A stretch of DNA of 64,000 nucleotides. Origin: Candidatus Kapaibacterium sp. GTDB lineage: Bacteria; Bacteroidota; Ignavibacteria; Kapaibacteriales; NICIL-2. Where the stretch lies: NCBI GenBank assembly GCA_026003475.1, contig BPHJ01000001.1, forward strand, positions 256,545 to 320,544. The letters are read 5' to 3'. The position numbers and the translations under genes are program-made. Below, piece by piece: positions 2,327 through 22,449 of this stretch. How positions within the stretch are numbered: the stretch's first letter is position 1; each line of letters opens with the position of its first letter. The notes below the pieces were generated by a model, which worked only from the letters and a program-made list of their open reading frames with translations, was not told the DNA's origin and did no database searches.

Positions 2327-2403
2327 TTTGTATTTTGCATCCCCTTGCGAAGGCAAACGAACGGTACACTTACCAAATGTTCAACTATTTCGGAGTACGT
2401 TTC

Positions 2404-5962: not shown

Positions 5963-6037
5963 GGGTGGTTAGCTCAGGTGGTTTAGAGCGTCTGCCTTAC
6001 AAGCAGAAGGTCGGGAGTTCGACTCTCTCACCACCCA
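5963..6037 (+). tRNA. tRNA-Val (anticodon TAC)
   Basis: Hand-folded cloverleaf. Acceptor GGGTGGT/ACCACCC, anticodon loop CTTACAA, T-loop GGTC-GGGAGTTCGACTCTCTC-. 75 nt, CCA not encoded. Confidence 0.8.
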
Positions 6038-6069
6038 CACGCTTGTTCCATTACCTGTGTACGCATGCA

Positions 6070-6252
6070 ATGGCAAAGAAACAGCAATCGTTTGCCGATA
6101 AGGTCAAAAAGCTTCACCGCGACGAGGGTAAGCTCAACGTCCGCGTGATCAAAGCCTACCGTTCACCGAGCGGCAGCGTCAAATTTTTCGAGCGCTTTGT
6201 CAAGGTGGACGATCAATCGCAGTTGGATAAAGTGGACATATCACGGTCGTAA
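6070..6252 (+). CDS. Small basic protein (61 aa), possibly DUF4295-like and ribosome-associated
   Basis: MAKKQQSFADKVKKLHRDEGKLNVRVIK… is Lys/Arg-rich and sits immediately upstream of rpmE. The longer ORF from 5965 would overlap the tRNA and is rejected. Confidence 0.4.
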   Translation: MAKKQQSFADKVKKLHRDEGKLNVRVIKAYRSPSGSVKFFERFVKVDDQSQLDKVDISRS

Positions 6253-6254
6253 CG

Positions 6255-6494
6255 ATGAAAAAAGGTATTCACCCGGCATATCGCCCCATTACGGTTGTCA
6301 TGACCGACGGCACGACCTTCCAGACGCGGTCGTGCTATGCAAAATCCGATCGGATGGTGCTGGAAATTGACTCCAAGTCCCACCCATTTTTCACCGGCAA
6401 ACAGACGCTGGTGGATACGACCGGTCGGGTTGATCGCTTCAACAAGCGGTTGCAAAAGTCTGAGCAGTTACGGAAACACCATCACGGAGCATAA
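6255..6494 (+). CDS. rpmE: 50S ribosomal protein L31, Zn-independent (type B / C-) form
   Basis: MKKGIHP…SKSHPFFTGKQTLVDTTGRVDRFNKR. Only one Cys, so it lacks the CxxC pairs of Zn-binding L31. Confidence 0.9.
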   Translation: MKKGIHPAYRPITVVMTDGTTFQTRSCYAKSDRMVLEIDSKSHPFFTGKQTLVDTTGRVDRFNKRLQKSEQLRKHHHGA

Positions 6495-6500
6495 GCAGCT

Positions 6501-6797
6501 ATGCGTCGTCGTCGAGAACAACTGAGCGACCCCGACAGCGACGGGATGTCGGCGATTGTATCGCCGTTTCGTGGGCGGAACCAAACCTTCCGCAAGCGGA
6601 AATCGCCCATTGGAGATTCGAAGGTCATTGACTACCTGGATCCAAAATTTCTCCAGCAATTTGTCAACGACCAAGGGCGAATCCTTCCCCGTCGCGTAAC
6701 CGGCCTAACGGCCTACCAACAGCGACAAGTTGCCCGAGCGATCAAGTATGCGCGGCATCTTGCGCTGATGCCATTTGTGGCACAGGATTTGAAATAA
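6501..6797 (+). CDS. rpsR: 30S ribosomal protein S18 (Cys-free C- form)
   Basis: [32 protein letters not shown] is the S18 signature. No Cys residues. Confidence 0.85.
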
Positions 6798-6816
6798 GCA
6801 ACCGTTGCGTCGGATT

Positions 6817-6848
6817 GATGCTCTTCCCTGATGTCAGGGAAGAGCATC
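6817..6848 (+). terminator. Strong hairpin, terminator candidate, 20 nt after the rpsR stop
   Basis: Perfect inverted repeat GATGCTCTTCCCT-(GATGTC)-AGGGAAGAGCATC. The trailing T-tract is weak (CATCTTTG). Confidence 0.45.
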
Positions 6849-7180
6849 GCCATCTTTGAAACCCGCATCACATCACGCTGTCTGGGCGTTTGTCTCGGGT
6901 GCGCAATTTTTTTTTCGGATGTCCGAACATTTTCCTTGCAATCACAGGGGTTGACAACCGAATTTTGCGCCCGCTCCCTTGTTGGTGTTTGGTGGTAAGA
7001 TCAGCAGGCACCGTTGCTGCATGCGCAGTGCAGGTGTACCCAGGGCGGGTTGTGTCCTCTCCGAAATACGTTCAGCATGGCAGGCATGTCCTGGCAAGCT
7101 GAACATCTTTCGAGGGTCTGCGACGCTACACCACAAGCGAGCCGGGTGGTGAGTCGTTCCATCGTCGTGCGAAAGGTCCT

Positions 7181-8668
7181 GTGCCGAAGAAACAATCCAT
7201 GCTCAGCTTGTTCGGAAGTGCGGAGTTGGAGCGCGTCAAACTCGACCAGCCTCCTGCTCCAGCGACGGAGTCGTCCGGTGATGCTACAACGGTCTGGCAG
7301 CGGTGTCTTGCCATCATTGGCGACAACGTTTCGCCCCAGCACTATCGGACGTGGTTCGAGCCAATCAAGCCGCTCCGGTGTGAGGGCCGTGAATTGGTCC
7401 TCCAAGTTCCCAGTCAGTTTTTCTACGAGTGGCTCGAGGAGCACTACTACGGTTTGCTGCAGAAGACGCTCTACCAGGTGCTCGGCAGTGGCGCACGACT
7501 CCGGTACGAAGTAGTCGTCGAAAACAGTAGTGAAACGCTCGAGCAGCGCACCATTCGCTTGCCGGCATTTCGGCAATCGGGGTCTGCACCTGTCCAAGCG
7601 GCGTTACCATTTACACCGACTGCGCCCGATGTGGCTGATTTTACCGGCTTCCTCAACCGGCGCTACACGTTCGCAAACTTCATCGCTGGCGAAAGCAATC
7701 AGCTTGCGCATTCGGCTGCGCAAGCCGTCGCCGAACAGCCCGGTCGAACACGCTTCAATCCGTTGGTCATCTACGGTGCGACGGGGCTGGGGAAAACGCA
7801 CCTTGTTCAAGCTATCGGCAATCGTATCCTTGAACGAAACCGCACTCTGCGCGTGCTCTATACTACCAGCGAACGCTTCACGATTGAGTACGTCAACGCA
7901 ATTCAGAACAACAAGACTAACGAGTTCACTGCTTTCTACCGCAGTGTTGATGTGCTGATTGTTGACGACATACAATTTTTCGAGGGGAAGGAGAAAACAC
8001 AAGACAACTTTTTTCACACCTTCAACGCGCTCCATCAACTGGGCAAGCAGATCATCTTGACCAGCGACCGCCCACCCAAAGAGCTACGCGACGTTGACGA
8101 GCGGCTCATCTCGCGCTTTCAGTGGGGGCTGACCGCCGACATCCAACCGCCAGACTACGAAATGCGGCTTGCCATTCTGCAGCGCAAAAGCCAAGACGAA
8201 GGCGTTGATGTTCCCCGCGAGGTACTCGAGTACATCGCGCGGCATGTTACGACCAGTGTCCGCGAACTCGAAGGATGCCTCATTAGCTTGATTGCCAAAG
8301 TCTCGCTCGATGGAAGGCTGCCAAGCGTCGAGCTTGCAAAAGAAGTTCTACGGAGCATTCTCGGTCCACTCGATTCGCTGGCCGTAACGATGGACGACAT
8401 CAAGAGCGCTGTTGCTGCATACTTCAACATCAGCACCGAGCTGCTGGAAAGCAAGACACGAAAGCACGAAGTCGTCCTCCCGCGACAAGTGGCGATGTAT
8501 TTGGCAAAGCAACTGACGACTCTTTCGCTCAAGTCCATCGGCCTTCATTTTGGCGGACGGGACCATACGACCGTGCTCCACTCCATTCAAATGGTTGAAG
8601 GTTACCTGGCAACCGATCCAACGGTGGCACAAGCAGTCGAGCAGCTCCAGCGGAAGCTGAAAGCATAA
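7181..8668 (+). CDS. dnaA: Chromosomal replication initiator protein DnaA
   Basis: Walker A GATGLGKTHL, IILTSDRPPKEL, and C-terminal DNA-binding helix region …KSIGLHFGGRDHTTVLHS. 495 aa. Confidence 0.95.
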   Translation: MPKKQSMLSLFGSAELERVKLDQPPAPATESSGDATTVWQRCLAIIGDNVSPQHYRTWFEPIKPLRCEGRELVLQVPSQFFYEWLEEHYYGLLQKTLYQVLGSGARLRYEVVVENSSETLEQRTIRLPAFRQSGSAPVQAALPFTPTAPDVADFTGFLNRRYTFANFIAGESNQLAHSAAQAVAEQPGRTRFNPLVIYGATGLGKTHLVQAIGNRILERNRTLRVLYTTSERFTIEYVNAIQNNKTNEFTAFYRSVDVLIVDDIQFFEGKEKTQDNFFHTFNALHQLGKQIILTSDRPPKELRDVDERLISRFQWGLTADIQPPDYEMRLAILQRKSQDEGVDVPREVLEYIARHVTTSVRELEGCLISLIAKVSLDGRLPSVELAKEVLRSILGPLDSLAVTMDDIKSAVAAYFNISTELLESKTRKHEVVLPRQVAMYLAKQLTTLSLKSIGLHFGGRDHTTVLHSIQMVEGYLATDPTVAQAVEQLQRKLKA

Positions 8669-8860
8669 GCTCTGCCAGCACTGTTTCTGCTGCTCCGAGA
8701 ACATTCTCTCAAAAAATCTATCCTCGGGCTTGGATGGGGCAGGCGGTGGCATTATTTTTGCACCGGCGTGAACATGGTAGTGGGATGGTGACGTTATTCC
8801 CAGGAATACCGCCGCTCTTCCACGTTGCGGTGATAGCAACAACTAATCCTGGAGGTACGA

Positions 8861-9343
8861 ATGAAACGTGTGCTACTTCTGGTTTGGCTGATCGCCTCTG
8901 GCATCGCCATTGCCCAGACCGTTCAGCGGAGCGTGGTTTCCAGCGGTGCAGTGCGTGCATCGAGCGGTTCGGTCGTGATGCAGGGGACCATCGGGCAACC
9001 TATCATCGGTAGTGGGGTCAATACCGAGCATCGCGCTGGTCACGGATTTTGGCACACCCTTGTTTCCAGTGTGAGCAGTGTGGAGCGCACCGATCCATTT
9101 CAGGTGCGGATCACGCCGCAGCCAGCGGTCACGGTTGCCACCATTGAGGTTGGTTGCACGCATGCAGTTAGTGCAGAGGTGCTGACACTGCAGGGGCAAC
9201 AGGTGGGCGCGGTTCGCTTTTCGTCCGATGCTGCCATGCAGCGTGGACAGCTTGATTGCAGCACCCTTGCCAGCGGGCTGTACTTGGTCCGCCTGCGGTG
9301 TGGGGAGCAGCAGCTATTCCTTCCGTTGATGATTGCAAAGTAA
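8861..9343 (+). CDS. Small secreted protein with T9SS C-terminal sorting domain
   Basis: Signal peptide MKRVLLLVWLIASGIAIAQ. C-terminal …LASGLYLVRLRCGEQQLFLPLMIAK is type-A-CTD-like. Confidence 0.5.
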   Translation: MKRVLLLVWLIASGIAIAQTVQRSVVSSGAVRASSGSVVMQGTIGQPIIGSGVNTEHRAGHGFWHTLVSSVSSVERTDPFQVRITPQPAVTVATIEVGCTHAVSAEVLTLQGQQVGAVRFSSDAAMQRGQLDCSTLASGLYLVRLRCGEQQLFLPLMIAK

Positions 9344-9382
9344 CCTACGTTGACATGTTTCACAAAAGCACGGAGTAGTCTC

Positions 9383-12300
9383 ATGAAGCGGTTGGTCCTG
9401 GTTTGTTTGCTGGTCTTGAGTGTGACCAGCGTGTTTGCGCAGATTCCGCGCGTGTTGTCGTACCAAGGGATATTGACTGATCCCGATGGGCGCATTCTGC
9501 CGGACGGGGAGTACACCCTAACGGTTCGACTCTACGATCGAGTGGATGCTACCGAGCCGATCTACGTGGAGGAGCATCGAGCCGTTGCGGTTCGAGGAGT
9601 CGTCAATCTGTTGATCGGGACGGTGGAGCCACTTCCGTGGAAGCTTTCCTTCGATCGGGTGTACTACGTGGGTCTGAGCATCAACGGTGGTGAGGAGCTT
9701 CGCCCGCGGACGATGCTGACAGCAGTGCCGTATGCGTTGCGCTCGGAGAGCGCGGCGGTGGCAGATGTGGCGAAGGGCTTGACGCCTGATGCCCTCAAAG
9801 GGGTCACTGTGCAGGCCACTCCAAGCGGTCCAGCCGGCGGTGACTTGATGGGGACCTATCCGAACCCCTACATTGGCAACAGCAAGGTGACTACACTCAA
9901 GATTGCCAGTTCTGCGGTGACGACCGACAAGTTAGCGCCTGGGGCCGTGACCGCGCCGAAACTCAACCAGATGGGAGCAGCTACTGGCGAATATCTTCGG
10001 TGGAATGGATCGCAGTGGGACCCTTCGCCGGTATCAACCGATGCATGGGCGTTGACGGGGAATACTATTAGCGGTACGCATTTTTTGGGCACCACGAATG
10101 CGCAGCCACTGGTGATACGGACCAGCAACACCGAACGGCTGCGGATTACCAGCAGTGGGAACGTTGGGATTGGCACCACCAGCCCATCGAATCTTCTGCA
10201 CATCGTGGGCTCGAGTGATCCTGTTCGAGTTCAGGGATTGAGTACCGATAACACGATCGATAATATCCTGGTTGTGGATGCCAATGGTGTGATGAAAATC
10301 CGCACCGCAACCAGTTTGTCTGGCTCGCTCGGCTGGAGCTTGACCGGGAATGGAAGCACAAATCCAGCAACTAATTTCCTTGGCACAACCGATGCAGTCG
10401 ACCTAGTCGTTCGCACCAACAACACAGAACGGCTTCGCGTTTCCAGCAGTGGGTTTGTCGGGATTGGAACATCCTCGCCAAGTGCTACCCTTGATGTCAA
10501 TGGCAGTGCACGGATGACCGGAAACCTCAGCGTCAACGGCGATGCAACGCTTGGGACATCGTCGAGCAATCAGCTTACAGTCAATGCACAAGTTGCGTCG
10601 GACCTGATTCCCACTACAACAAATACCTACGATCTTGGCATTACAAGCCTTCGTTGGCGGAATGGGTGGTTCGCAGGTACGGTAACAGCCGGCGGATTGA
10701 CACTCGACGGCTTTACCTCGGGATCTGTCCTGTTCGTTGGCAGTGGTGGTGCCCTGAGCGAAAACAATGCGACCTTTTTCTGGGATGATGTCAACATGCG
10801 GCTTGGGATTGGGACGAACGCACCGACGGCAAGGTTACACGTTGCAGGTACCGGCCGATTCGACGGGCAACTGACAGTAACTACGGGAGGGGCAGCAATC
10901 ACGGGCAATAGCACGGTGACGGGGACACTGGGTGTCAGCAGTGATGTCGGTGTCGGAGGAAATTTGACCGTGCAAGGTAACACTACACTTGGCGATGCCT
11001 CAAGCGACAACGTGACATTTACAGCCCGTGTGAATTCGAACATTCATCCTTCTGCTGATGCGAGCTACGATCTTGGCAGCAGCACTTTGCGGTGGAGGAA
11101 TGGTTGGTTCAGCGGGACGGTGACAGGGCAGAATGCGACGGTGACGAGTTTGACGCCTGGCTCAGTGGTGTTTGCTGGTACTGGAGGAGCATTGAGCCAG
11201 AACAATGCAAACTTTTTCTGGGACAACACCAACACGCGGCTTGGGATTGGGACGAACGCGCCGAGCCATCGGTTGCATGTGCATGCTCCGAGCTACAACG
11301 CAATCAATGTTACTAGTGCCGATAACACAGGTGCTGGTATTCGTTTCGATGCCAGCGGTAGTAGTGGGGGGCAGACATTTACCGTCTTATCAACAGGAAC
11401 AGGTGCTGGCGCAGGTGCTGGTAAACTCGGTTTTTTTGATGAAACAGGTAGCTTGTACAGAATGGTCATCGAGGGTACTACCGGCCACGTCGGCATCGGT
11501 ACAACAGCACCAAGCCAGCGATTGCACGTAGACGGCGGGCAGATTGCTGTAACGGGGAGCAGCGCTCCACCAGGCCCAGGTCCAGGACTCCAGCTTGGAA
11601 GCATCAATGGCAGTTATCGTTGGATCCAAAGCTATGATAACCAGCCACTGGCAATCAATCCACTCGGCAATAACGTCGGCATCGGTACGACCACCCCATC
11701 TACCGCGCTCCATGTTGCCCAAGACAATGCAACACCAGGAGGTGGTCAGCTCACCGTTTCTGGGAAGACTAACCAGAACAAACAAATCATTGTTGGGTTC
11801 AATACGACTGGTGACTACGGTCAAATTCAAGCAGTTGAACAAAGCGTCGCAACACGTCCTCTGGCGCTCAATCCTGTTGGGGGGAATGTTGGCATTGGTT
11901 TGACAGCACCCTCAGAGATGCTCCACGTTGCTGGGAATACCCGCGTGGATGGAAATTTGAGTGTGCTTGGCAATACCCAACTTGGCGATGCCACGAGCGA
12001 CAACGTGACATTTACAGCCCGTGTGAATTCGAACATTGATCCTGCTACCGATGCGAGCTACGATCTTGGCAGCAGCAGTTTGCGGTGGAAGGATGGCTGG
12101 TTCAGCGGGACGGTCACCTCGCAGAATGCCACGGTAACGAGTCTCTCGCCGGGGTCGGTGGTGTTTGCGGGCACCGGCGGGGCGTTGAGCCAGAACAATG
12201 CGAACTTTTTCTGGGACAACACCAACACACGGCTTGGGATTGGGACGAACGCACCGACGGCTGCGCTCGACCTTCGATTGGAGAACAACGAGCGCGGATT

Positions 12301-15300
12301 AGTCATTCGTGGTGGTGCCGCGCCAGCAGATAACTTCTTCCGAATTGAAGAAAACAGTGGGCAGTATCGGTGGCGCATTGATCAGAACTATGATCTCTTT
12401 GTGACTGATGGCACTGGGAATGATCTTGCTGTGTGGCGGAACAATGGCTACATCGGCATTGGAACGACTAGCCCAGCAGTACAACTTCACCTTAACGATG
12501 CGGGGAGTAATCCGGTCTCTTTGCGCTTGACAAATGTTACCGCTGCATCCGGCTTCGATGTTGGTATTACAACGTCGGGTACAGCTGAACTCCGTCACCA
12601 AGACGATTTCCCGGTTGAGGTGTATGTCAACAATACGCGAGCACTGCGTATCGAGCCAACAAGCGGTACTGCAAATCAGGTCCCGAACATTATTGGGGGA
12701 GATGCTGGTAATGCTGTTGGATCTGGCAACGAAGGTTCTGTCATTGGCGGTGGGCGCGGGCATAGTATTGATGCAGACAATTCTGTCATTGCCAGTGGAC
12801 TCAATCACGCTATCTCTGGTCCAAGCTCAGGGATCGTAGCTGGTGTTGCAAATTCGATTGAAAGTGAAAGTGCATTCATTGGTGCCGGAGCAGAAAATAT
12901 GATCGCGAACACCGCTGATTTTTCTGCAGTTGTCGCCGGGTCTCAAAATGGTGTGAGTGGATCGTATGCGTTCATCGGTTCTGGTTCCTTGAATAGTGCA
13001 TCTGGTGCCTATTCCGGTATCCTGGCAGGTGCCGAGAACGGTGTCAGTGGAGATGCTGCAATGGCAATTGGAATGGGCTTGTCTGCGAATTCCTACCGCG
13101 AAGTTGTGGTCGGATCGTACAATACCAACTATTCTGCGTTGAGCGAGACAACATGGAATGCTTCGGACCGACTTTTCGTTGTCGGAAATGGACAGAACAG
13201 CGGAACGCGTTCAGATGCTCTTATCATTTGGAAAAGTGGTAATGCACAGTTCTATTACGATGTCATGCTTGGCGATGCCTCAAGCGACAACGTTACGTTC
13301 GCTGCGCGGGTGAATTCGAACATTGATCCTGCTACCGATGCGAGCTACGATCTTGGCAGCAGCAGTTTGCGGTGGAAGGATGGTTGGTTCAGTGGGACGG
13401 TCACCTCGCAGAATGCAACGGTAACGAGTCTCTCGCCGGGGTCGGTGGTGTTTGCGGGCACCGGCGGAGCATTGAGCCAGAACAATGCAAACTTGTTCTG
13501 GGATGATGTAAACACGCGGCTTGGGATTGGAACGAACACACCCTCAACGACGCTGCATGTCGCTGGTGTGGCAACAATCACAAGCGATGCCTCGGTTGGT
13601 GGGAATTTGAGTGTTACTGGGAGCGCAACTATTGGTACCGGTTTGACTGTCTCCAACGGGGGTGCCACGATTACCGGAAATACCAGCACGACAGGGGATC
13701 TGTCTGCCGGTGGTAACTTGACGATCAATGGTAACGCCACGCTCGGTGATGCAGGAGGCGATCAGGTTACCATTAATGCTGCAACAGTCTCGGTACCCAA
13801 TATCCCAAGCAGTTCGACGGCAACCGACTTGGTCGTGTGGAATGCCAATAACCTTGAGCGTCGTGCGGCCAGTGGTTTGATTTCTACCTACGCGTGGATG
13901 CTTGGCGGTAATGCGATTACCAATCCAGCGACGGAGTGGATCGGCACAAGTTCGGCGCAACCATTCGTAGTCCGTGCAGGTGGTACGCAGACGCTTCAAT
14001 TCAACACCAACGGCAGCATCCAGCGAGACAATGGTGGCAATACACGCGGCACAAATGCGATTGATCTCCAAATCAGCCGGAGTAGTGCAAGTCAAGTTGC
14101 CAGCGGAAGTGCCGCAGTCATCGTTGGCGGGACTAATAACACAGCAAGCGGTGTGCAGAGCTTTGTCGGTGCAGGCGATAACAACACCGCTTCGCAGCAG
14201 TATGCAGCGGTAGTTGCTGGGATAAGCAATAGTGCAAGTGGTGCGCAGAGCTTCGTCGGTGGCGGGCAGAGCAATCAAGCAAACGGCAGCTACAGCACTG
14301 TCGCCGGTGGGCAAGGCAATGTCGCGCAAGGACAGTATTCGGCTATCCCTGGCGGGTTCAACATGAAGGTGGGTGACCGCAGCTTTGGCTTCAGTGGGCA
14401 GACGTCCGGGACAACGACCGATTTGAGCGGCTCCAGTCAGATTGCTGCCTTTGTGGATGTTGACCTGTGGCTCTACAACGTGCGCAACCAGGCATCGCAA
14501 TTGCGGCTCTACGAGCCCTCGGGTTCTGGGATCAACTACACTGCATTCCAAGCGCAGGCGCAAAGCGCTGATATCGTCTATACTCTTCCGGCAAGTATTC
14601 CCGCTGGTGGAGGGCTCTTGCAGACGGATGCTTCGGGGAATTTGAGCTGGATTAGCAGCACAGGCACCTTCTGGTCCTTGACGGGCAACGCTGCAACAAA
14701 TCCGGCAACGCAGTTCCTCGGCACAAGCGATGCGCAGCCGCTTGTAGTTCGCACCAATAACCTTGAGCGCATGCGTGTGACCAGCAGTGGCATTGTGCAA
14801 ATCCAAAATCAGGCCAGCGGCACCCCAACGACTCAGTTCCATGTTCTTGGCGGTAACAATGGTGCGGGGGCTACGGAGGTTGTCGTGCAAGCGGGACAAA
14901 ATCAGCTGAATACGAATCTCATTGAGTGGCGTGACCAGTATGGGACCCCACTCGGTGCAATCGATCCCAGTGGCTTTGTCGGGATAGGCATTAGTACATC
15001 GCTTGGGGCGGCACTGCACGTCATGAGCAATGGAGCACAGCCGGCAGCATTGTTCGAAAACGGTACCGTTCAGGTCGGCACCACTGGAACACCGATGAAT
15101 GCGATAATGCACGGGACGATTACTGTTGATCCTCCCTCGATCGGTGCAAATTCCTCGGCGACTGTGAGTGTTACAATTACTGGAGTCGAACCTGGCGATC
15201 GCATATTTCTGACTCCACCAGATACGTTCGAAGATGATCTGATTTTCCAAGGTGCTGCAGTCACAGCGTCTGATACTGTTACAATTAAGATCCGCAACAT

Positions 15301-15361
15301 ACTTGGCATTTCAGTTGATGGAAATGCACTCGATTGGAACTACCTTGTCATCAAACCATAA
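9383..15361 (+). CDS. Giant (approx. 1990 aa) secreted phage-tail-fibre-like / beta-roll surface fibre protein; no recognisable T9SS CTD and no S74 domain
   Basis: Signal peptide MKRLVLVCLLVLSVTSVFAQ. At least eight occurrences of the motif (N/F/H)VGIGT(T/S)xPSxxLH(V/I). YadA-head/Hep_Hag-like 14-residue Gly/Ser/Asn repeats (e.g. SFVGAGDNNTASQQ / YAAVVAGISNSASGAQ / SFVGGGQSNQANGSY). Three near-identical ~93-aa internal modules. The N-terminal part, …PSGPAGGDLMGTYPNPYIGNSKVTTLKIASSAVTTDKLAPGAVT, is homologous to the repeat unit of the downstream 1247-aa fibre protein. Confidence 0.7.
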   Translation: MKRLVLVCLLVLSVTSVFAQIPRVLSYQGILTDPDGRILPDGEYTLTVRLYDRVDATEPIYVEEHRAVAVRGVVNLLIGTVEPLPWKLSFDRVYYVGLSINGGEELRPRTMLTAVPYALRSESAAVADVAKGLTPDALKGVTVQATPSGPAGGDLMGTYPNPYIGNSKVTTLKIASSAVTTDKLAPGAVTAPKLNQMGAATGEYLRWNGSQWDPSPVSTDAWALTGNTISGTHFLGTTNAQPLVIRTSNTERLRITSSGNVGIGTTSPSNLLHIVGSSDPVRVQGLSTDNTIDNILVVDANGVMKIRTATSLSGSLGWSLTGNGSTNPATNFLGTTDAVDLVVRTNNTERLRVSSSGFVGIGTSSPSATLDVNGSARMTGNLSVNGDATLGTSSSNQLTVNAQVASDLIPTTTNTYDLGITSLRWRNGWFAGTVTAGGLTLDGFTSGSVLFVGSGGALSENNATFFWDDVNMRLGIGTNAPTARLHVAGTGRFDGQLTVTTGGAAITGNSTVTGTLGVSSDVGVGGNLTVQGNTTLGDASSDNVTFTARVNSNIHPSADASYDLGSSTLRWRNGWFSGTVTGQNATVTSLTPGSVVFAGTGGALSQNNANFFWDNTNTRLGIGTNAPSHRLHVHAPSYNAINVTSADNTGAGIRFDASGSSGGQTFTVLSTGTGAGAGAGKLGFFDETGSLYRMVIEGTTGHVGIGTTAPSQRLHVDGGQIAVTGSSAPPGPGPGLQLGSINGSYRWIQSYDNQPLAINPLGNNVGIGTTTPSTALHVAQDNATPGGGQLTVSGKTNQNKQIIVGFNTTGDYGQIQAVEQSVATRPLALNPVGGNVGIGLTAPSEMLHVAGNTRVDGNLSVLGNTQLGDATSDNVTFTARVNSNIDPATDASYDLGSSSLRWKDGWFSGTVTSQNATVTSLSPGSVVFAGTGGALSQNNANFFWDNTNTRLGIGTNAPTAALDLRLENNERGLVIRGGAAPADNFFRIEENSGQYRWRIDQNYDLFVTDGTGNDLAVWRNNGYIGIGTTSPAVQLHLNDAGSNPVSLRLTNVTAASGFDVGITTSGTAELRHQDDFPVEVYVNNTRALRIEPTSGTANQVPNIIGGDAGNAVGSGNEGSVIGGGRGHSIDADNSVIASGLNHAISGPSSGIVAGVANSIESESAFIGAGAENMIANTADFSAVVAGSQNGVSGSYAFIGSGSLNSASGAYSGILAGAENGVSGDAAMAIGMGLSANSYREVVVGSYNTNYSALSETTWNASDRLFVVGNGQNSGTRSDALIIWKSGNAQFYYDVMLGDASSDNVTFAARVNSNIDPATDASYDLGSSSLRWKDGWFSGTVTSQNATVTSLSPGSVVFAGTGGALSQNNANLFWDDVNTRLGIGTNTPSTTLHVAGVATITSDASVGGNLSVTGSATIGTGLTVSNGGATITGNTSTTGDLSAGGNLTINGNATLGDAGGDQVTINAATVSVPNIPSSSTATDLVVWNANNLERRAASGLISTYAWMLGGNAITNPATEWIGTSSAQPFVVRAGGTQTLQFNTNGSIQRDNGGNTRGTNAIDLQISRSSASQVASGSAAVIVGGTNNTASGVQSFVGAGDNNTASQQYAAVVAGISNSASGAQSFVGGGQSNQANGSYSTVAGGQGNVAQGQYSAIPGGFNMKVGDRSFGFSGQTSGTTTDLSGSSQIAAFVDVDLWLYNVRNQASQLRLYEPSGSGINYTAFQAQAQSADIVYTLPASIPAGGGLLQTDASGNLSWISSTGTFWSLTGNAATNPATQFLGTSDAQPLVVRTNNLERMRVTSSGIVQIQNQASGTPTTQFHVLGGNNGAGATEVVVQAGQNQLNTNLIEWRDQYGTPLGAIDPSGFVGIGISTSLGAALHVMSNGAQPAALFENGTVQVGTTGTPMNAIMHGTITVDPPSIGANSSATVSVTITGVEPGDRIFLTPPDTFEDDLIFQGAAVTASDTVTIKIRNILGISVDGNALDWNYLVIKP
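10988..11268 (+). repeat. Intragenic dispersed repeat module, copy 1 (~280 bp; encodes LGDASSDNVTFTARVNSNI…RLGIGTNAPS)
   Basis: Direct nucleotide comparison with copies at 11981 and 13268. Roughly 88–95% identity by eye. Confidence 0.8.
11981..12260 (+). repeat. Intragenic dispersed repeat module, copy 2
   Basis: Encodes LGDATSDNVTFTARVNSNIDPATDASYDLGSSSLRWKDGWFSGTVTSQNATVTSLSPGSVVFAGTGGALSQNNANFFWDNTNTRLGIGTNAPT. The central ~200 nt are nearly identical to copy 3. Confidence 0.8.
13268..13548 (+). repeat. Intragenic dispersed repeat module, copy 3
   Basis: Encodes LGDASSDNVTFAARVNSNIDPATDASYDLGSSSLRWKDGWFSGTVTSQNATVTSLSPGSVVFAGTGGALSQNNANLFWDDVNTRLGIGTNTPS. Confidence 0.8.
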
Positions 15362-15405
15362 GCGATGTCGCTATGGGCAGCGATCGCTCAATGTCATCTG
15401 GTGGG

Positions 15406-16110
15406 ATGAGGCGATGGATACAGATTCTCGGCTTGGCCTTAGTGCTCGTTGCGAGTGCAGTAGGACAGGATCGCGTTCCTAATGGCTGGTGGCAACAAGA
15501 GGACTCCCGTACTCGAACGGGAGTCCAGCCACTTGGCTATGGCCTGGAAACAATCCTCCAGCTTTCTCCCAAGCAGTTCGAGGAACTTCTCTGCGATGGC
15601 AGGCGCATCCCGAACATCGGTCTGATGGCGCAGGAGGTGTTTCCCCTTGTTCCTGAAGCAGTCCGCCCACCATCAAAACAATGCCAACACTGGGCAATAG
15701 ATTACTCACGGCTCGTGCCGATTCTCATCGCTGCAATCCAACAGCAACAGCAGCAAATTGCGCAGCTCCGCCAAACTGTCGAACAGTTGCAGGCGATGGT
15801 ACAAGTGCCCACCGCAGGGACAAGCTCCCAGCATGTCCGCCTTGATGGCAATTGGCTGGGTGATAACATCCCTAATCCACACGATGGAACAACGGTGATT
15901 CCGTACTACGTGCCTGCGGGCGTTGGGCGTGCCCAGCTCGAAGTCAGCGATGCAACGGGACGGACCGTTCGCACCGTCGAGCTGGTGGCGCGCGAGCAAT
16001 GGGCTCAAGTGACACTCGATATGAGCTTGCTCAGTTCGGGCACGTATGAGTACCGCTTGCTCTTCGATGGACGTGTTGTTGCCACCAAACAGATGCAATT
16101 GGTCAAGTGA
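15406..16110 (+). CDS. Stand-alone secreted Peptidase-S74-like (phage-fibre intramolecular chaperone) domain protein with Gln-rich coiled coil and T9SS C-terminal sorting domain
   Basis: Signal peptide MRRWIQILGLALVLVASAVGQ; the ORF is also open from 15334. The S74-like segment RRIPNIGLMAQEVFPLVPEAV…IDYSRLVPILIAAIQQQQQQIAQLRQ is homologous to the C-terminal region of the 16280..20023 protein. C-terminal NIPNPHDGTTVIPYYVPAGVGRAQLEVSDATGRTVRTVELV…SGTYEYRLLFDGRVVATKQMQLVK is a type-A CTD. Confidence 0.6.
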   Translation: MRRWIQILGLALVLVASAVGQDRVPNGWWQQEDSRTRTGVQPLGYGLETILQLSPKQFEELLCDGRRIPNIGLMAQEVFPLVPEAVRPPSKQCQHWAIDYSRLVPILIAAIQQQQQQIAQLRQTVEQLQAMVQVPTAGTSSQHVRLDGNWLGDNIPNPHDGTTVIPYYVPAGVGRAQLEVSDATGRTVRTVELVAREQWAQVTLDMSLLSSGTYEYRLLFDGRVVATKQMQLVK

Positions 16111-16279
16111 TGCGGATGCAGAGTGGTGTGTGTGCCCTACAAAAGAGAAGGTGGCGTTCGACAAGTCTGTAGCAAGGCAATAAGTTACGCAAAGCACGAA
16201 TATTTTGGCACGGTTATTTCTTCTGATGTGAAGCAGCCACACTCGTGGTTAGTATGTTTCACATCTCAACCGTGCAGCG

Positions 16280-19200
16280 ATGAAACATGTGTCGTTTTTC
16301 TGTGCAGCCGTTCTTGGGGTTATCTTCACCGTTACGACCCCATCTTCCGCGCAGGTGGGCAGCCTGATCAACTACGGCGCTATCATCAAAGATTCTCTGC
16401 GCCTGGAAAATGCGGCTTCTTTTGTTCGCCTTCCATCGGACGGGTCACTCCGCTGGGGTGAGGACATGGTTGGAATGCTGGTAAGCGCTGGCTTGACAGT
16501 TTCTCGTACATGGACACTACCCGACGAAAGCGGTATCATCCTAACATCGGCGAGAACGTTCAGCGGCGACGTCAGTGGTGTGTACAACAACTTGCAGCTT
16601 GGCAGTGGCGTGGTCGGTACGGCCGAGCTTGCCGATGGTGCGGTGACGGATGCGAAGGTGAACGACGTTTCGTGGACGAAGATCACGGGAGCGCCGACGA
16701 GTTTTCCGCCGAGTGGGAGTGCTGGTGGTGATTTGACGGGGACGTATCCGAACCCGACGATAGCCAACGATGCGGTGACCAGTGCGAAGATTGCCGACGG
16801 GACGATCACCGATGCTGACATCAGCAGCAGTGCGGCGATAGCGGTTAGCAAGCTGGCACCGGGCAGCAATGGGCAAGTGTTGACGACGGTTGGTGGAGTG
16901 CCGACGTGGTCGAGTGTGAGCATCACGGAGACTGATCCGGTGTGGACGGCAGCGGAGCCCAGCTATGGGAACTTGACGCAGAACGATACGGTTTCGGGAA
17001 CGTGGACGTTTAGCAACGCAATCAACGGCAGCATCACAGGTAATGCGGCGACAGCGACGGCGTTGCAGACAGCGCGCAACTTTTCGCTATCGGGCGATGT
17101 GACGGCGCCGGCGGTGTCGTTTGATGGGACGGGGAACGTGACGTTGACGACGACGCTTGCCGATGGTTCAGTGAGCACGGCCAAGCTTGCCGATGGTGCG
17201 GTGACGGATGCGAAGGTGAACGACGTTTCGTGGACGAAGATCACGGGAGCGCCGACGAGTTTTCCGCCGAGTGGGAGTGCTGGTGGTGATTTGACGGGGA
17301 CGTATCCGAACCCGACGATAGCCAACGATGCGGTGACGAGTGCGAAGATTGCCGACGGGACGATCACCGATGCTGACATCAGCAGCAGTGCAGCGATAGC
17401 GGTCAGCAAGCTGGCGGCGGGCAGTGATGGGCAAGTGTTGACGACAGTGGGAGGAGTGCCGACGTGGTCGAGCGTGAGCATCACGGAGACTGATCCGGTG
17501 TGGACGGCGGCGGAGCCGAGTTATGGTAACTTGACGCAGAACGAGACGGTTTCGGGAACGTGGACGTTTAGCAACGCAATCAACGGCAGCATCACAGGTA
17601 ATGCGGCGACAGCGACGGCGTTGCAGACAGCGCGCAACTTTTCGCTATCGGGCGATGTGACGGCGCCGGCGGTGTCGTTTGATGGGACGGGGAACGTGAC
17701 GTTGACGACGACGCTTGCCGATGGTTCAGTGAGCACGGCCAAGCTTGCCGATGGTGCGGTGACGGATGCGAAGGTGAGCGATGTATCGTGGACGAAGATC
17801 ACGGGAGCGCCGACGAGTTTTCCGCCGAGTGGGAGTGCTGGTGGTGATTTGACGGGGACGTATCCGAACCCGACGATAGCCAACGATGCGGTGACGAGTG
17901 CGAAGATTGCCGACGGGACGATCACCGATGCTGACATCAGCAGCAGTGCAGCGATAGCAGTTAGCAAGCTGGCACCGGGCAGCAATGGGCAAGTGTTGAC
18001 GACAGTGGGAGGAGTGCCGACGTGGTCGAGCGTGAGCATCACGGAGACTGATCCGGTGTGGACGGCAGCGGAGCCCAGCTATGGGAACTTGACGCAGAAC
18101 GATACGGTTTCGGGAACGTGGACGTTTAGCAACGCAATCAACGGCAGCATCACAGGTAATGCGGCGACGGCGACGGCATTGCAGACAGCGCGCAACTTTT
18201 CGCTATCGGGCGATGTGACGTCGCCGGCGGTGTCGTTTGATGGGACGGGGAACGTGACGTTGACGACGACGCTTGCCAATGGTTCAGTGAGCACGGCCAA
18301 GCTTGCCGATGGTGCGGTGACGGATGCGAAGGTGAGCGATGTTTCGTGGACGAAGATCACGGGAGCGCCGACGAGTTTTCCGCCGAGTGGGAGTGCTGGT
18401 GGTGATTTGACGGGGACGTATCCGAACCCGACGATTGCCAACGATGCGGTGACGAGTGCGAAGATTGCCGACGGGACGATCACCGATGCTGACATCAGCA
18501 GCAGTGCAGCGATAGCGGTTAGCAAGCTGGCACCGGGCAGCAATGGGCAAGTGTTGACGACGGTGGGAGGAGTGCCGACGTGGTCGAGCGTGAGCATCAC
18601 GGAGACTGATCCGGTGTGGACGGCGGCGGAGCCGAGTTATGGTAACTTGACGCAGAACGAGACGGTTTCGGGAACGTGGACGTTTAGCAACGCAATCAAC
18701 GGCAGCATCACAGGTAATGCGGCGACAGCGACGGCGTTGCAGACAGCGCGCAACTTTTCGCTATCGGGCGATGTGACGGCGCCGGCGGTGTCGTTTGATG
18801 GGACGGGGAACGTGACGTTGACGACGACGCTTGCCAATGGTTCAGTGAGCACGGCCAAGCTTGCCGACGGTGCGGTGACGGATGCGAAGGTGAGCGATGT
18901 ATCGTGGGGGAAGATCACGGGAGCGCCGACGAGTTTTCCGCCGAGTGGGAGTGCTGGTGGTGATTTGACGGGGACGTATCCGAACCCGACGATAGCCAAC
19001 GATGCGGTGACCAGTGCGAAGATTGCCGATGGGACGATCACCGATGCTGACATCAGCAGCAGTGCGGCGATCGCGGTCAGCAAGCTTGCGGCGGGCAGTG
19101 ATGGGCAAATTCTCGTCACAAGTAGCGGTTCACCGCAATGGGCAAATGCAAGCACGCTCAGCGGTAGTTTCTGGGCACTCGGGGGCAATAGTGCTACTGC

Positions 19201-20023
19201 AGACCTGTCCCTGGGGACCACGAGCGATGACGATGTTGTATTCCTCCGGAACAATACTGAGGCGTTCCGTATCGGCTCTGTCAGTGGTAACCCTGTGCTC
19301 AACCTTGGTTCAGCAACTCCAGCGTATCGGATAGACTTGCCGAACAACTCGAACATTGCGATCGGGCGGATACGCGCGCAGGGGTACGCGACGTACTCAT
19401 CACGAGCGTGGAAGGAGGACATTCGTCCCATCGAGGGTGCCCTTGAGAAAGCACTTCGGCTGACGGGGGTACAATACCAGTGGAAGCCGGAGTATGGCGG
19501 CACGCGCGATATTGGGTTTGTGATGGAGGAGGTAGCGGAGGTAGTACCGGAGGTAGTAGACCGGGATCCGAAGACAGGCGAGTATCTTGGGATGGAGTAC
19601 AGTCGGTTGACGGCGTTGCTTGTGGAAGCGCTCAAGGAGGAACACCGCCGCAACGAGGAACTGCGTGCCGAGCTTGTGCAGTTGCGGCAGATGGTCGAGC
19701 AGCTCGCCACACGGCAGCAGGTAACCGCTGGCACATCACATATCACCGTTCGCGTTGAAGGTGACTGGCTTGGGCAAAACGTTCCCAACCCGCACGACGG
19801 AACGACGACGATACCGTGCTACGTTCCTGCAGGAGTTGGAAGCGCGGAGCTTGCCATCAGCGATGCAGCTGGGCGTCTGGTTCGTCGTGTTGTGCTCAGC
19901 GCACGTGATACGTGGACGAACGTAACGGTAGACATGTCACTCCTTGCGTCGGGGACGTACGAATACCAGCTCGTCTTCGACGGTCGTGTCGTTGCCAGCA
20001 AGCAGATGCAGCTGGTCAAGTAG
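16280..20023 (+). CDS. Phage-tail-fibre-like secreted protein (1247 aa): 4.4 tandem 186-aa repeats, then Peptidase-S74 intramolecular chaperone domain, then T9SS C-terminal sorting domain
   Basis: Signal peptide MKHVSFFCAAVLGVIFTVTTPSSAQ. The repeat unit contains …AKLADGAVTDAKVNDVSWTKITG…TSAKIADGTITDADISSSAAIAVSKL…, reminiscent of tail-fibre motifs. The S74 region is SSRAWKEDIRPIEGALEKALRLTGVQYQWKPEYGGTRDIGFVMEEVAEVVPEVV…YLGMEYSRLTALLVEALKEE. The CTD is NVPNPHDGTTTIPCYVPAGVGSAELAISDAAGRLVRRVVLS…SGTYEYQLVFDGRVVASKQMQLVK. Confidence 0.8.
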   Translation: MKHVSFFCAAVLGVIFTVTTPSSAQVGSLINYGAIIKDSLRLENAASFVRLPSDGSLRWGEDMVGMLVSAGLTVSRTWTLPDESGIILTSARTFSGDVSGVYNNLQLGSGVVGTAELADGAVTDAKVNDVSWTKITGAPTSFPPSGSAGGDLTGTYPNPTIANDAVTSAKIADGTITDADISSSAAIAVSKLAPGSNGQVLTTVGGVPTWSSVSITETDPVWTAAEPSYGNLTQNDTVSGTWTFSNAINGSITGNAATATALQTARNFSLSGDVTAPAVSFDGTGNVTLTTTLADGSVSTAKLADGAVTDAKVNDVSWTKITGAPTSFPPSGSAGGDLTGTYPNPTIANDAVTSAKIADGTITDADISSSAAIAVSKLAAGSDGQVLTTVGGVPTWSSVSITETDPVWTAAEPSYGNLTQNETVSGTWTFSNAINGSITGNAATATALQTARNFSLSGDVTAPAVSFDGTGNVTLTTTLADGSVSTAKLADGAVTDAKVSDVSWTKITGAPTSFPPSGSAGGDLTGTYPNPTIANDAVTSAKIADGTITDADISSSAAIAVSKLAPGSNGQVLTTVGGVPTWSSVSITETDPVWTAAEPSYGNLTQNDTVSGTWTFSNAINGSITGNAATATALQTARNFSLSGDVTSPAVSFDGTGNVTLTTTLANGSVSTAKLADGAVTDAKVSDVSWTKITGAPTSFPPSGSAGGDLTGTYPNPTIANDAVTSAKIADGTITDADISSSAAIAVSKLAPGSNGQVLTTVGGVPTWSSVSITETDPVWTAAEPSYGNLTQNETVSGTWTFSNAINGSITGNAATATALQTARNFSLSGDVTAPAVSFDGTGNVTLTTTLANGSVSTAKLADGAVTDAKVSDVSWGKITGAPTSFPPSGSAGGDLTGTYPNPTIANDAVTSAKIADGTITDADISSSAAIAVSKLAAGSDGQILVTSSGSPQWANASTLSGSFWALGGNSATADLSLGTTSDDDVVFLRNNTEAFRIGSVSGNPVLNLGSATPAYRIDLPNNSNIAIGRIRAQGYATYSSRAWKEDIRPIEGALEKALRLTGVQYQWKPEYGGTRDIGFVMEEVAEVVPEVVDRDPKTGEYLGMEYSRLTALLVEALKEEHRRNEELRAELVQLRQMVEQLATRQQVTAGTSHITVRVEGDWLGQNVPNPHDGTTTIPCYVPAGVGSAELAISDAAGRLVRRVVLSARDTWTNVTVDMSLLASGTYEYQLVFDGRVVASKQMQLVK
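16627..19095 (+). repeat. Tandem in-frame repeat array, period 558 bp (186 aa), ~4.4 copies, ~97% nucleotide identity
   Basis: The anchor 'gcttgccgatggtgcggtgacgg' recurs at 16627, 17185, 17743, 18301 and 18859, each exactly 558 nt apart. A few SNPs are distributed mosaically: N/S in AKV(N/S)DVSW, APGSNGQ/AAGSDGQ, QNDTVSG/QNETVSG, TAPAVSF/TSPAVSF. Confidence 0.95.
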
Positions 20024-20048: not shown

Positions 20049-20086
20049 GGGGCAGGCCTTGTAGGTCTGCCCCCTGTGTTTTGTGG
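20049..20086 (+). terminator. Rho-independent terminator candidate after the fibre gene cluster
   Basis: GGGGCAGG…(loop)…CTGCCCCC hairpin followed by TGTGTTTTGTGG. Confidence 0.45.
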
Positions 20087-20190: not shown

Positions 20191-22449
20191 ATGGCATTCG
20201 ATTTTTCGACGATTCGCCGCGTCTATGAACAATTGCCGGAGCGTCTTGCTGATGCACGTGGCATCCTCGGTCGGCCGATGACGCTTGCGGAAAAAATCCT
20301 CTATGCCCACATGGCGGCGTTGCCATCAGCACCGCCGATACGCGGACAGGATTACGTCGAGTTCTACCCCGACCGCGTTGCGATGCAGGATGCTACGGCA
20401 CAGATGGCGTTGCTGCAGTTCATGAGTGCGGGTATCCCGCGGGTTGCGGTTCCTACGACGGTACACTGCGACCACCTCATCCGAGCCGAGCGCGGAGCCA
20501 AAGAGGATCTTCAAACGGCGCTGATCGAAAACGATGAGGTCTTCAACTTCCTCGCTTCGGTTTCGAAAAAGTATGGCATTGGGTTCTGGAAGCCTGGTGC
20601 AGGTATCATCCATCAAGTGGTGCTCGAAAACTATGCCTTCCCCGGTGGCATGATGATTGGCACCGACTCTCACACACCCAATGCTGGCGGCTTGGGAATG
20701 CTTGCGATTGGTGTTGGGGGAGCCGATGCCGTGGACGTGATGGCGGGCATGCCATGGGAATTGCTCATGCCAAAGCATATCGGCGTACGCTTGACCGGAC
20801 GCATGAGTGGATGGACTGCACCAAAGGATGTGATTCTCAAGCTGGCTGGAATTCTCACGGTCAAAGGTGGGACCGGCGCGATCATCGAGTACTTCGGTGA
20901 TGGATGCGCAACCATCAGCGCGACGGGCAAAGCAACCATTTGCAACATGGGCGCTGAAGTTGGTGCGACAACCTCGATCTTCCCCTACGACGAGGCAATG
21001 GATCGCTACCTGCGCGCGACCGGCCGTTCTGACGTCGCCGATGCAGCACGCCCACTGGCAGAGTACCTCCGCCACGATGACGACGTCGAACGCAATCCGG
21101 AGAAGTACTTCGATCGCATCATCGAGATTGATCTTTCCACACTCGAACCGCACATCAACGGACCCTTCACGCCCGACCGTGCAATGCCAATCAGCGAGTT
21201 TGTCAAGGCTGTCGAGCAGAACGGATGGCCAGCCGATTTGCGAGTAGCGCTGATTGGCTCGTGTACGAACTCCTCGTATGAGGACATGACGCGCGTGGCC
21301 GAGATCGCCGACTATGCTGCTAAACACGGACTCAAAGCTAAGTGTGAGCTTACGATCACGCCGGGCTCTGAACAAATCCGCGCAACGATGGAACGCGATG
21401 GAATCCTGGAAAAACTCGAAGCAATTGGTGCAACCGTCCTCGCGAACGCATGCGGTCCGTGTATCGGGCAGTGGAAACGACACGACGTCAAAAAAGGCGA
21501 CAAAAACTCGATCATCACGTCCTTCAATCGGAACTTCAGCGGTCGTAACGACGGCAATCCCGATACGCATGCTTTCGTTGCATCACCTGAAACGGTCCTC
21601 GGGTTTGCCCTGACCGGTGATTTGCGCGTTGACTTCACCACGCAGCCGATCAACGGTTCGGTGCTCAATCCACCGCGAGGAGAAGAACTTCCAGCCCGTG
21701 GATTCGTGCCGGATCCCGAAGGGTACGTCCCCCCTGCCGAGGATGGCAGCACCATCGAAGTGATCATCAAACCCGATTCTCAGCGCTTGCAACGCCTGGA
21801 GCCATTTCCGCCACCCAGACCAGAAGAATTTATCGACATGGTGCTTTTGCTCAAAGTCAAGGGCAAGTGCACGACCGACCACATCTCCCCGGCGGGTCCG
21901 TGGCTTCGCTTCCGCGGACATTTGGACAACATCTCCAACAACATGTTCACCGGCGCAACCAATGCCTTCAATGGCAAGCTCAACTCAGCAAAGAACGTCT
22001 TTACCGGTGAGTATGCCGAAGTACCGCAGGTTGCGCGGGACTACAAAGCGCGTGGCGTCTCGTGGATCGTCGTTGGTGAGGAAAACTACGGCGAAGGTTC
22101 CTCGCGCGAACATGCCGCGATGGAACCGCGCTATTTGGGCGGGAAGGTGATTTTGGTCAAGTCGTTTGCGCGTATTCACGAGACCAACCTCAAAAAGCAG
22201 GGCATGCTACCGCTGGTATTCGACAATCCTGCCGACTACGACCTCATCGGCGAGGATGACCGTTTCACGCTCGATGTACGGCAGCTCCGTCCAGCAGAGC
22301 CGATGGAGTTGCTCATTCGAAAACCCGATGGAAGCGAGCATCGCATTCTCGTTCGGCATTCGATGAATGAGCACCAAATCGAGTGGTTCTGGGCGGGCAG
22401 CGCACTCAACCTGATGGCACGCCGCCTGCGCCAATCGTCGAATGCATAA
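20191..22449 (+). CDS. acnA: Aconitate hydratase (mitochondrial-type ~750-aa aconitase family)
   Basis: Aconitase signatures [12 protein letters not shown] and [11 protein letters not shown]; 4Fe-4S ligand cysteines. 752 aa. Confidence 0.85.

Follow-up and report, generated by a model that had tools for sequence, protein, structure and literature searches.

A conserved chromosomal cassette of Kapabacteria encoding MAT-like fibres with a predicted S74 and type IX secretion module

Here we describe four genes at 8861-20023 of a 64-kb window (the whole stretch of DNA analysed) from Candidatus Kapaibacterium sp. KatS3mg039, a metagenome-assembled genome (MAG) from a hot spring. With a rough probability of 0.55, we read them as a conserved Kapabacterial chromosomal cassette that builds two trimeric surface fibres resembling the mosaic adhesive trimers (MATs) of Bdellovibrio, routed to the machinery of type IX secretion (T9SS) by a disposable C-terminal module in which an S74 intramolecular chaperone domain is followed by a T9SS C-terminal sorting domain (CTD). 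This reading draws on the domain composition of the proteins, the presence or absence of the S74 catalytic dyad, sequence conservation, synteny and a non-phage context. What is new is the T9SS CTD behind S74; host domestication of S74 fibres is already known. A preliminary description of the same DNA had placed four co-directional genes within 11 kb, and all four open reading frames (ORF1 to ORF4) were found on the forward strand at the coordinates it gave, filling 8861-20023. It had also favoured a host-encoded trimeric fibre routed to the T9SS as the most economical reading, which is what we infer as well.

Conservation of the cassette

Hidden Markov models (HMMs) were built from the parts of the four proteins and run on loci from species-representative genomes, along with exact-protein look-ups. 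A general homolog search returned only proteins of less than 500 aa, mostly fragments, and full-length fibre relatives came from the loci and from the representative search described below. The comparison genomes are mostly MAGs, in which frameshifts and collapsed repeats are possible. The conserved gene order consists of an ORF1-family gene, a fibre with the ORF2-type N-terminal domain and C-terminal tip, an orphan S74-CTD gene (the ORF3 type) and a fibre with the ORF4-type N-terminal domain, S74 and CTD. It is complete in the window, GCA_900175145.1, bacterium HR20, KatS3mg038 and Chlorobi bacterium NICIL-2, and, to the extent covered by their contigs, Chlorobiota PFF170222_bin_45, Chlorobiota SKW43 and Kapaibacterium SKYG14 have the same order, while in HR21 and one further MAG the orphan lies behind other CTD-less fibres. 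The integrity of the cassette is independent of its neighbours: in two genomes its neighbours are dnaA and aconitase, and in three others it adjoins YgjP/OmpA-like genes. Shaft lengths vary widely, spanning 725-2003 aa in the ORF2 type and 801-1247 aa in the ORF4 type. Additionally, in bacterium HR21 and Kapaibacterium SKYG35 two or three S74-CTD fibre genes stand one after another in tandem arrays, a paralog expansion that recalls the 21 MAT genes of Bdellovibrio.

The S74-CTD fibre and the spread of the fusion

ORF4 (KatS3mg039_0244, 16280-20023, 1247 aa) carries, in order, a signal peptide, a conserved N-terminal domain of about 86 aa, five repeats, a short tail-fibre tip, the S74 domain, a helical coiled coil, a linker and the CTD. 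Profile cut-offs were the gathering thresholds (GA) of 22 bits for PF13884 (S74) and 27 bits for PF18962 (CTD), 23 bits for TIGR04183 (CTD) and 60 bits for NF053851. The S74 chaperone/protease domain, together with the coiled coil, occupies 19367-19744 and scores 49.0 bits with PF13884, and the T9SS type A CTD at 19745-20020 lies above both of its cut-offs (PF18962, 27.1 bits; TIGR04183, 27.9 bits), so that the earlier call of a 1247-aa fibre with S74 plus CTD is confirmed. The S74 domain begins with YSSRAWKEDI, which aligns to the canonical SDARLKENI, and its motif is intact, the predicted dyad being the nucleophile Ser1040 (codon 19397-19399) and its partner Lys1045. By analogy with Bd3182 of Bdellovibrio, the cut is predicted between Tyr1039 and Ser1040, where the junction reads ...RAQGYATY (residue 1039) / SRAWKEDIRPIEG.

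The shaft of ORF4 (16597-19128) is made of five tandem 558-nt (186-aa) repeats, 88-94% identical and containing DUF5907; their period exceeds the limit of Tandem Repeats Finder and they were recovered by a separate repeat search. Two full-length relatives more than 90% identical to ORF4 (P0159, 753 aa; P0299, 689 aa) have two repeat markers against five in ORF4, a difference that reflects either shaft length varying by repeat copy number or repeats collapsed in short-read assemblies. The regular expression for the capping-loop motif found in ORF2 (see below) had no match in ORF4, nor did NF053851, and the N-terminal domain of ORF4 differs from that of ORF2.

The 231-aa module of ORF4 was searched with phmmer against 1.84 billion cluster representatives, and the best 150 matches were inspected. 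S74 and a terminal CTD occur together in 74 of these 150. The motif S-x4-K-x2-[IVLM] is present in 69 of the 74, the remaining five being three N-terminally truncated fragments and two orphans; the dyad motif is thus kept in 69/69 fused S74-CTD representatives that could be evaluated and is lost only in orphans. Wherever a fibre is attached the dyad has been retained, which argues for selection on cleavage there, and this pattern is the best indirect evidence, read from sequence, that cleavage may be functional. The preliminary description had implied two successive C-terminal processing events; for ORF4 they are plausible given the retained dyad.

Canonical SDxxxK dyads in proteins with S74 and CTD were also found in MAGs labelled Chitinophaga pinensis, Saprospiraceae and Sphingobacteriales, in a Bacteroidetes MAG and in the representatives P0064 and P0260, with both domains detected by Pfam, or S74 by Pfam and the CTD by a custom HMM. 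As judged from these sequences, the fusion is widespread across several Bacteroidota orders. The only annotations that these fusions carry in public data are 'hypothetical' and 'tail fiber domain-containing protein'. Concerning viruses, the best 80 matches among IMG/VR viral contigs covered only the S74 part (query residues to about 136) and never the CTD, whose motif was searched with one pattern. The fusion therefore looks like a cellular adaptation of the Bacteroidota/Chlorobiota group and not a phage feature.

A degenerate variant was encountered in an uncultured Aquimarina sp. (5975-19996), where five fibre genes with clear CTDs are interrupted by one leucine-rich repeat gene on the opposite strand. 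Their S74-like module has N, G or M in place of the Ser nucleophile, and the Pfam S74 profile stays below threshold in all five. As Pfam barely detects S74 and the Ser is missing, the array was dropped from the S74-CTD set and kept as a degenerate variant; it may represent an offshoot of this architecture that no longer cleaves. Finally, P0183 (483 aa) lacks a fibre body: its signal peptide leads straight into three tandem S74 domains, which together score 114 bits, and then a CTD. It is another free-standing S74-CTD form, here with the SDxxxK motif intact.

The long fibre and its relation to MAT proteins

Bdellovibrio bacteriovorus encodes 21 chromosomal MAT fibres with signal peptides, which have a conserved N-terminal domain of about 130 aa and a trimeric beta-helix shaft with the capping loop V-G-G/N-pi-x-x-P-x-x-x-L (Caulton et al., 2024; PMC10769870). 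Thirteen of them end in an autoproteolytic S74 domain (SDxxxK), and Bd3182 was shown to cleave at S782, while eight "NS74" MATs end in other tips, such as a beta-sandwich, and fold without S74 (PMC10769870). MAT is thus a precedent for a host S74 fibre that is self-cleaving and surface-located, and in MAT as in phage proteins S74 cleavage is spontaneous upon folding (PMC10769870).

ORF2 (KatS3mg039_0242) is a chimeric fibre of 1992 aa from its deposited start (9383-15361); the longest frame is 9350-15361 (2003 aa). Behind the signal peptide it consists of an N-terminal domain of about 130 aa, a shaft, a segment resembling the UspA1 head and a C-terminal domain of about 135 aa. The N-terminal domain (9443-9832), which directly follows the signal peptide, matches NF053851 "Bdello_MAT_N" with 24.6 bits (E-value = 1.8e-5), and 7/8 homologs match it too (best E-value = 4.3e-10), all of them below the 60-bit cut-off, so that the domain may be taken as distantly homologous to the N-terminal domain of the Bdellovibrio MATs. 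The shaft (10160-13560) contains 10 capping-loop motifs of the form [VLI]GIGTxxPxxxLH[VIL], together with 300-nt internal repeats that begin at 10520, 10958, 11951 and 13238. The VGIGTxxPxxxLHV motif of ORF2 equals the MAT capping-loop consensus, and the PDB sequences matched by ORF2 include two solved MAT fragments, 8OND (Bd2133; E-value = 1e-8) and 8OJN (E-value = 5e-7). The head-like segment (14084-14362; aa 1579-1671 in the 2003-aa numbering) matches the UspA1 head 3PR7 with an E-value of 1.7e-12. Both the VGIGTxxPxxxLHV repeats and the YadA-like head that had been read from the letters are thereby upheld. Matches to PHROG tail-fibre families were obtained for ORF2, ORF3 and ORF4.

Profile searches of Pfam/TIGRFAM type detected neither S74 nor a CTD in ORF2; the earlier picture of a fibre-like protein of about 2000 aa stands, and what does not apply to it is the S74-CTD end. 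Instead, ORF2 ends in a highly conserved tip domain of about 135 aa (14954-15358) with 53 invariant columns and the terminal residues NYLVIKP. It is probably Ig-like, and no significant match to it was found in Pfam or the PDB, profile search included. Additionally, the shaft module AAFVDVDLWLYNVRNQASQLRLYEPSG... (14450-14650 of the window, aa ~1700-1770) recurs in P0003 and P0035 directly upstream of their S74-CTD end, which shows mosaic exchange of modules between CTD-less and S74-CTD fibres.

Considering the MAT fragment and N-domain matches together with the domain ends, the two proteins appear to be MAT-like fibres from another phylum, ORF2 of the NS74 type and ORF4 of the S74 type. As in MAT, the fibres are chromosomal and non-phage, carry signal peptides and phage-like beta-helix modules, come in two flavours with an S74 end (ORF4) or an alternative tip (ORF2), and show paralog families and module swapping; here they are predicted to be trimeric. 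The differences are that a T9SS CTD follows S74 here whereas the Bdellovibrio proteins have no CTD, that the N-domain match of ORF2 is far under the family cut-off and the N-domain of ORF4 is different, that the accessory ORF1 and ORF3 have no described MAT counterpart, and that the host, a Kapabacterium, is thermophilic and not known as a predator. The preliminary description was not aware of phage-fibre-like bodies, S74 and a CTD having been described together. Since host S74 fibres are already a named family (MAT, PMC10769870), the novelty is narrower and lies in the CTD fusion and the accessory genes, for which no description was found; a literature search linking S74 or intramolecular chaperones with the T9SS found nothing, its matches being irrelevant (subtilisin propeptides, a strain label 'S74' and an outer-membrane-vesicle protein table).

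The orphan S74-CTD protein

ORF3 (15334-16110; most likely start 15406, 234 aa) is a stand-alone S74-CTD protein, arranged as signal peptide, GWWQQED motif, S74/ICA fold, long helix, linker and CTD. It scores 24.1 bits with PF13884, above GA, and its fold matches the MyRF ICA domain and the T9SS CTDs of mirolase, PorU and PorZ, while its CTD is 74% identical to that of ORF4. The two domains claimed for it earlier are therefore there; rather than merely counting as a third cargo, however, ORF3 is a conserved, non-catalytic paralog. The S-x4-K dyad is replaced by Glu and Arg at the Ser and Lys columns. Among eight orphan orthologs these columns hold Glu and Arg in six and Ala and Lys in two, and all eight share the signal peptide and the GWWQQxD motif. 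Pairwise dN/dS values in the family are 0.09-0.33, a range to be taken qualitatively as dS is mostly saturated. By these sequence comparisons the orphans are under purifying selection and form a distinct lineage, predicted to be non-catalytic. Within a genome, their S74 part and the fibre S74 share only 27-35% identity, and for this reason we consider the lineage old. Mature ORF3 has 213 aa, a near-exact match in size to the 208-aa stub predicted for ORF4.

In all ten cases having upstream sequence (10/10), the orphan lies directly behind a fibre gene without S74 and CTD, and Kapabacterial fibres with the ORF2-type N-domain that have no downstream orphan carry a CTD in cis (L016, L022, L023). 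Orphan CTDs group together across genomes, with the exception of GCA_900175145.1. Specifically, the last 85 aa (the CTD) of its orphan (10001-10747) are 96% identical to those of the downstream S74 fibre (11168-14158), against 66-79% in other genomes, suggesting gene conversion between the two 3' ends. Two other accounts of ORF3 were considered and rejected. ORF2 and ORF3 are unlikely to be one frameshifted or readthrough gene, as their relative frames are +2 in the window, 0 in GCA_900175145.1 and +1 in a third locus (L003), and as ORF3 starts with a separate signal peptide; and the family is not a decaying remnant, given its dN/dS and conservation, despite one decayed copy (in KatS3mg040, see below).

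The small CTD protein

ORF1 (KatS3mg039_0241, 8861-9343, 160 aa) is 100% identical to GIV53723.1 and consists of a signal peptide, a conserved N-terminal peptide of about 45 aa (aa 19-66), a linker and a T9SS-type CTD (aa 77-160). The peptide carries the invariant motif GTIGQP..G..GFW and is modelled by AlphaFold as a monomer with a predicted local distance difference test (pLDDT) value of about 40, while residues 77-160 form a confident beta-sandwich model (pLDDT >90). This sandwich, together with homologs that carry PF18962, backs the earlier call of a small CTD protein in spite of its score (given below). The ORF1 family is always found directly upstream of a fibre bearing the ORF2-type N-domain and seems to be confined to Kapabacteria. 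Three Cys residues (C99, C133 and C147) are invariant inside the CTD of the family, and a distant ORF1-like gene is paired with a gene for a MAT-N-like domain in a further locus (L037).

Genomic setting

Upstream, the cassette is flanked by dnaA (7181-8668) and, further away, by a ParA-like gene and tRNA-Val; downstream lies aconitase (20191-22449). The intergenic gaps ORF1/ORF2, ORF2/ORF3 and ORF3/ORF4 measure ~40, 44 and 169 nt, respectively, and a strong hairpin resembling an intrinsic terminator (20049-20073, forward strand; 11-bp stem with 8 GC pairs, T-run) directly 3' of ORF4 is the probable end of the transcription unit. ORF1, ORF2 and ORF4 are deposited as hypothetical proteins. Inspection of the flanks, and likewise of the syntenic genomes, revealed no capsid, sheath, tube, baseplate, integrase or terminase genes adjoining the cluster, and none of the neighbouring genes had a PHROG match. 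Given the latter, we do not regard the locus as a prophage, tailocin or injection system, in agreement with the preliminary description. The signal peptides of all four proteins were judged by inspection (hydrophobic h-region and A/G-Q site), and Gln follows the predicted site at +1 in each of them, which is the "Q-rule" described for Bacteroidetes and some relatives (PMC5837995).

The window encodes at least six CTD proteins. Three further T9SS type A CTD proteins lie at 11-2326, 2191-4437 and 39248-41278, one of which shows weak, sub-threshold matches to Ig_7, ASH and Sortilin-like. Large proteins at 31199-33616 (reverse strand) and 41438-44416 (forward strand) match IgGFc_binding strongly (E-values of 8e-81 and 1e-68) and, as a pair, flank a gene resembling TonB-dependent receptors (36350-39232) and a CTD protein.

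Proposed export route and alternative explanations

What follows is inferred from these data, namely trimer formation, export through the T9SS, the cleavage step and when it occurs, and the parts played by ORF3 and ORF1. ORF4 would be exported by Sec to the periplasm, and its S74 domain and coiled coil would nucleate the fibre trimer, as in phage fibres and MATs. The three CTDs would target the assembly to the T9SS and, during or after export, S74 would cut itself at Ser1040, so that the 208-aa S74-CTD stub is removed and the tip exposed, while the conserved N-terminal domain would keep the fibre on the cell. S74 cleavage could in this way be a sortase-independent release step. For ORF2, a non-S74 fibre, the module would be supplied in trans: ORF3 may be a pre-cut, non-catalytic S74-CTD stub that joins the ORF2 trimer and provides it with a secretion signal, as suggested by the strict ORF2-ORF3 pairing and by the pattern of a CTD either in cis or in an orphan downstream. 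ORF1 is a candidate surface anchor or partner of the MAT-like N-domain, suggested by its strict pairing with that domain and by its conserved, intrinsically unfolded peptide.

Several points weigh against this route. In the profile searches, which detected S74 in ORF3 and ORF4 as had been anticipated, only the CTD of ORF4 lies above the cut-offs; ORF1 falls just under them (PF18962, 25.0 bits, E-value = 2.4e-5, vs 27; TIGR04183, 21.4 vs 23) and ORF3 reaches 20.4-20.5 bits with the two profiles. T9SS cargo is usually viewed as monomeric, with the CTD removed by the PorU sortase, and to our knowledge oligomeric T9SS cargo is not established. None of the T9SS machinery genes (SprA/Sov, PorV, PorU, GldKLMN) was found within the 64-kb window, to which the search was limited, and for lineages of the Chlorobi group the literature goes no further than a 'possible occurrence' of the T9SS. 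If S74 were cut immediately and the stub lost in the periplasm, the fibre would be left without an export signal; hence the stub would have to stay bound until export, or cleavage be delayed, or folding be completed outside the cell. ORF2 may not need ORF3 at all, because the non-S74 MATs of Bdellovibrio fold without S74. Finally, in KatS3mg040 (9421-10252) an ORF2-type fibre with a non-CTD tip is followed only by a 95-codon CTD ORF from which the S74 part is gone, a remnant that is either a decayed orphan or an assembly defect.

Concerning ORF3, it is possible, although we doubt it, that the protein is no export escort but a surface protein in its own right, secreted by the T9SS (for instance as a stub trimer, as a dock or as a regulator competing for the shuttle), or a leftover of tip swapping kept as a recombination donor. 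The near-identical orphan and fibre CTDs of GCA_900175145.1, with their hint of gene conversion, and the orphan decay in KatS3mg040 fit such a role, as does the fact that non-S74 MAT fibres need no S74 (PMC10769870), and the shaft modules common to ORF2 and the S74-CTD fibres P0003 and P0035 imply that recombination between these genes is common. Set against this are the purifying selection, the signal peptide of its own and the N-terminal motif conserved in eight orthologs, as well as the strict 10/10 position behind CTD-less fibres, complementary to the fibres with a CTD in cis; moreover, a pure donor would not need a signal peptide. A distinctly less probable arrangement is one in which the fibres are anchored by their C-terminus, S74 trimerising only and remaining uncut, PorU removing the CTD and the C-terminus being tethered at the outer membrane with the N-terminus outward. 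Such attachment is generally known, from Porphyromonas gingivalis, to be the usual fate of type A CTD cargo, and the five-gene Aquimarina array, which keeps its CTDs without the Ser nucleophile, indicates that non-cleaving versions exist. It does not sit well with the retention of SxxxxKxx[IVLM] in ORF4 and in every evaluable fusion and its loss precisely in the orphans, which have nothing to cleave, nor with N-domains that directly follow the signal peptide and resemble the cell-proximal N-domain of MAT.

There is also a very slim chance that S74 is cut in the periplasm, leaving the fibre periplasmic or at the inner leaflet while only the S74-CTD stub is exported as waste. The spontaneous cleavage of phage and MAT proteins upon folding (PMC10769870) would lead one to expect this, yet keeping a CTD on a discarded module would serve no purpose, and UspA1-like heads and tail-fibre tips are extracellular binding devices. 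Hardly credible, in our opinion, is an origin of the genes as prophage, tailocin or contractile-injection-system remnants, with the fibres part of a particle and not of the cell surface. The strong matches of ORF2, ORF3 and ORF4 to PHROG tail-fibre families are what speaks for it; the flanks, however, are dnaA, aconitase, tRNA and housekeeping genes with no PHROG matches, the cassette is found in at least nine genomes with no phage genes among the called neighbours, Sec signal peptides on all four proteins and CTDs on three would be unexpected for cytoplasmically assembled particles, and the viral S74 matches (best 80) lack the CTD.

Beyond the preferred reading of a T9SS-routed, MAT-like fibre cassette, a bolder version can be put forward quite tentatively, and we think it unlikely to hold as a whole. 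ORF3 and its relatives would form a new class of S74 escort that acts in trans and is catalytically dead, a free-standing trimerisation chaperone that bears a T9SS sorting domain and docks on a CTD-less trimeric fibre for piggyback export through the T9SS; self-cleavage of ORF4 would be a sortase-independent release of trimeric cargo, and ORF1 would represent the long-sought type of surface receptor for the MAT-like N-domain.

Comparison with other systems

Related domains are known from the phage S74 chaperones (endosialidase K1F/endoNF, 3GW6; the L-shaped tail fibre pb1 of T5, 4UW8) and from the ICA domain of MyRF (7DC3). In contrast to these, the S74 domain here is not C-terminal, as a linker and a secretion CTD come after it, the proteins are predicted to be Sec-exported, and ORF3 is free-standing and without nucleophile. 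With T9SS type A cargo, such as the gingipains of P. gingivalis, mirolase of Tannerella forsythia (8QB1), PorU and PorZ, the cassette shares a signal peptide with Gln at +1, an Ig-like CTD (TIGR04183/PF18962) and a flexible linker; it differs in that the cargo is a predicted obligate trimer, hence with three CTDs, and has its own predicted autoproteolytic site upstream of the CTD, which could release it without sortase. Trimeric autotransporters (YadA, UspA1) resemble ORF2 in its head-like segment and, by logic, the proposed route as a whole, in which a C-terminal module would trimerise and bring the protein across the outer membrane. Unlike in those proteins, no YadA_anchor beta-barrel was matched by Pfam in any of the four, export by the T9SS is proposed and the C-terminal module would be shed, not retained as an anchor. 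Finally, phages encode separate tail-fibre assembly chaperones (T4 gp38/gp57A, Mu/P2 Tfa) as small genes directly downstream of the fibre. ORF3 is like them in position and proposed role, with no sequence relationship, being of the intramolecular S74 type and bearing a secretion signal.

Implications

If the preferred reading is true, a widespread class of obligate-trimer T9SS cargo with its own self-cleaving site upstream of the CTD would make two matters testable, namely how oligomers pass the translocon and whether autoproteolysis can replace or precede sortase processing. The orphan S74-CTD protein is a concrete candidate for the part of trans chaperone or export adaptor, and the small partner for that of surface anchor of the MAT-like N-domain, and homologs in culturable Chitinophagales and other Bacteroidota make these ideas testable. 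Apart from supplying an export route, still unknown for MAT fibres, the cassette would extend the bacterial re-use of phage tail-fibre parts as adhesins from Bdellovibrio to the Bacteroidota/Chlorobiota group.

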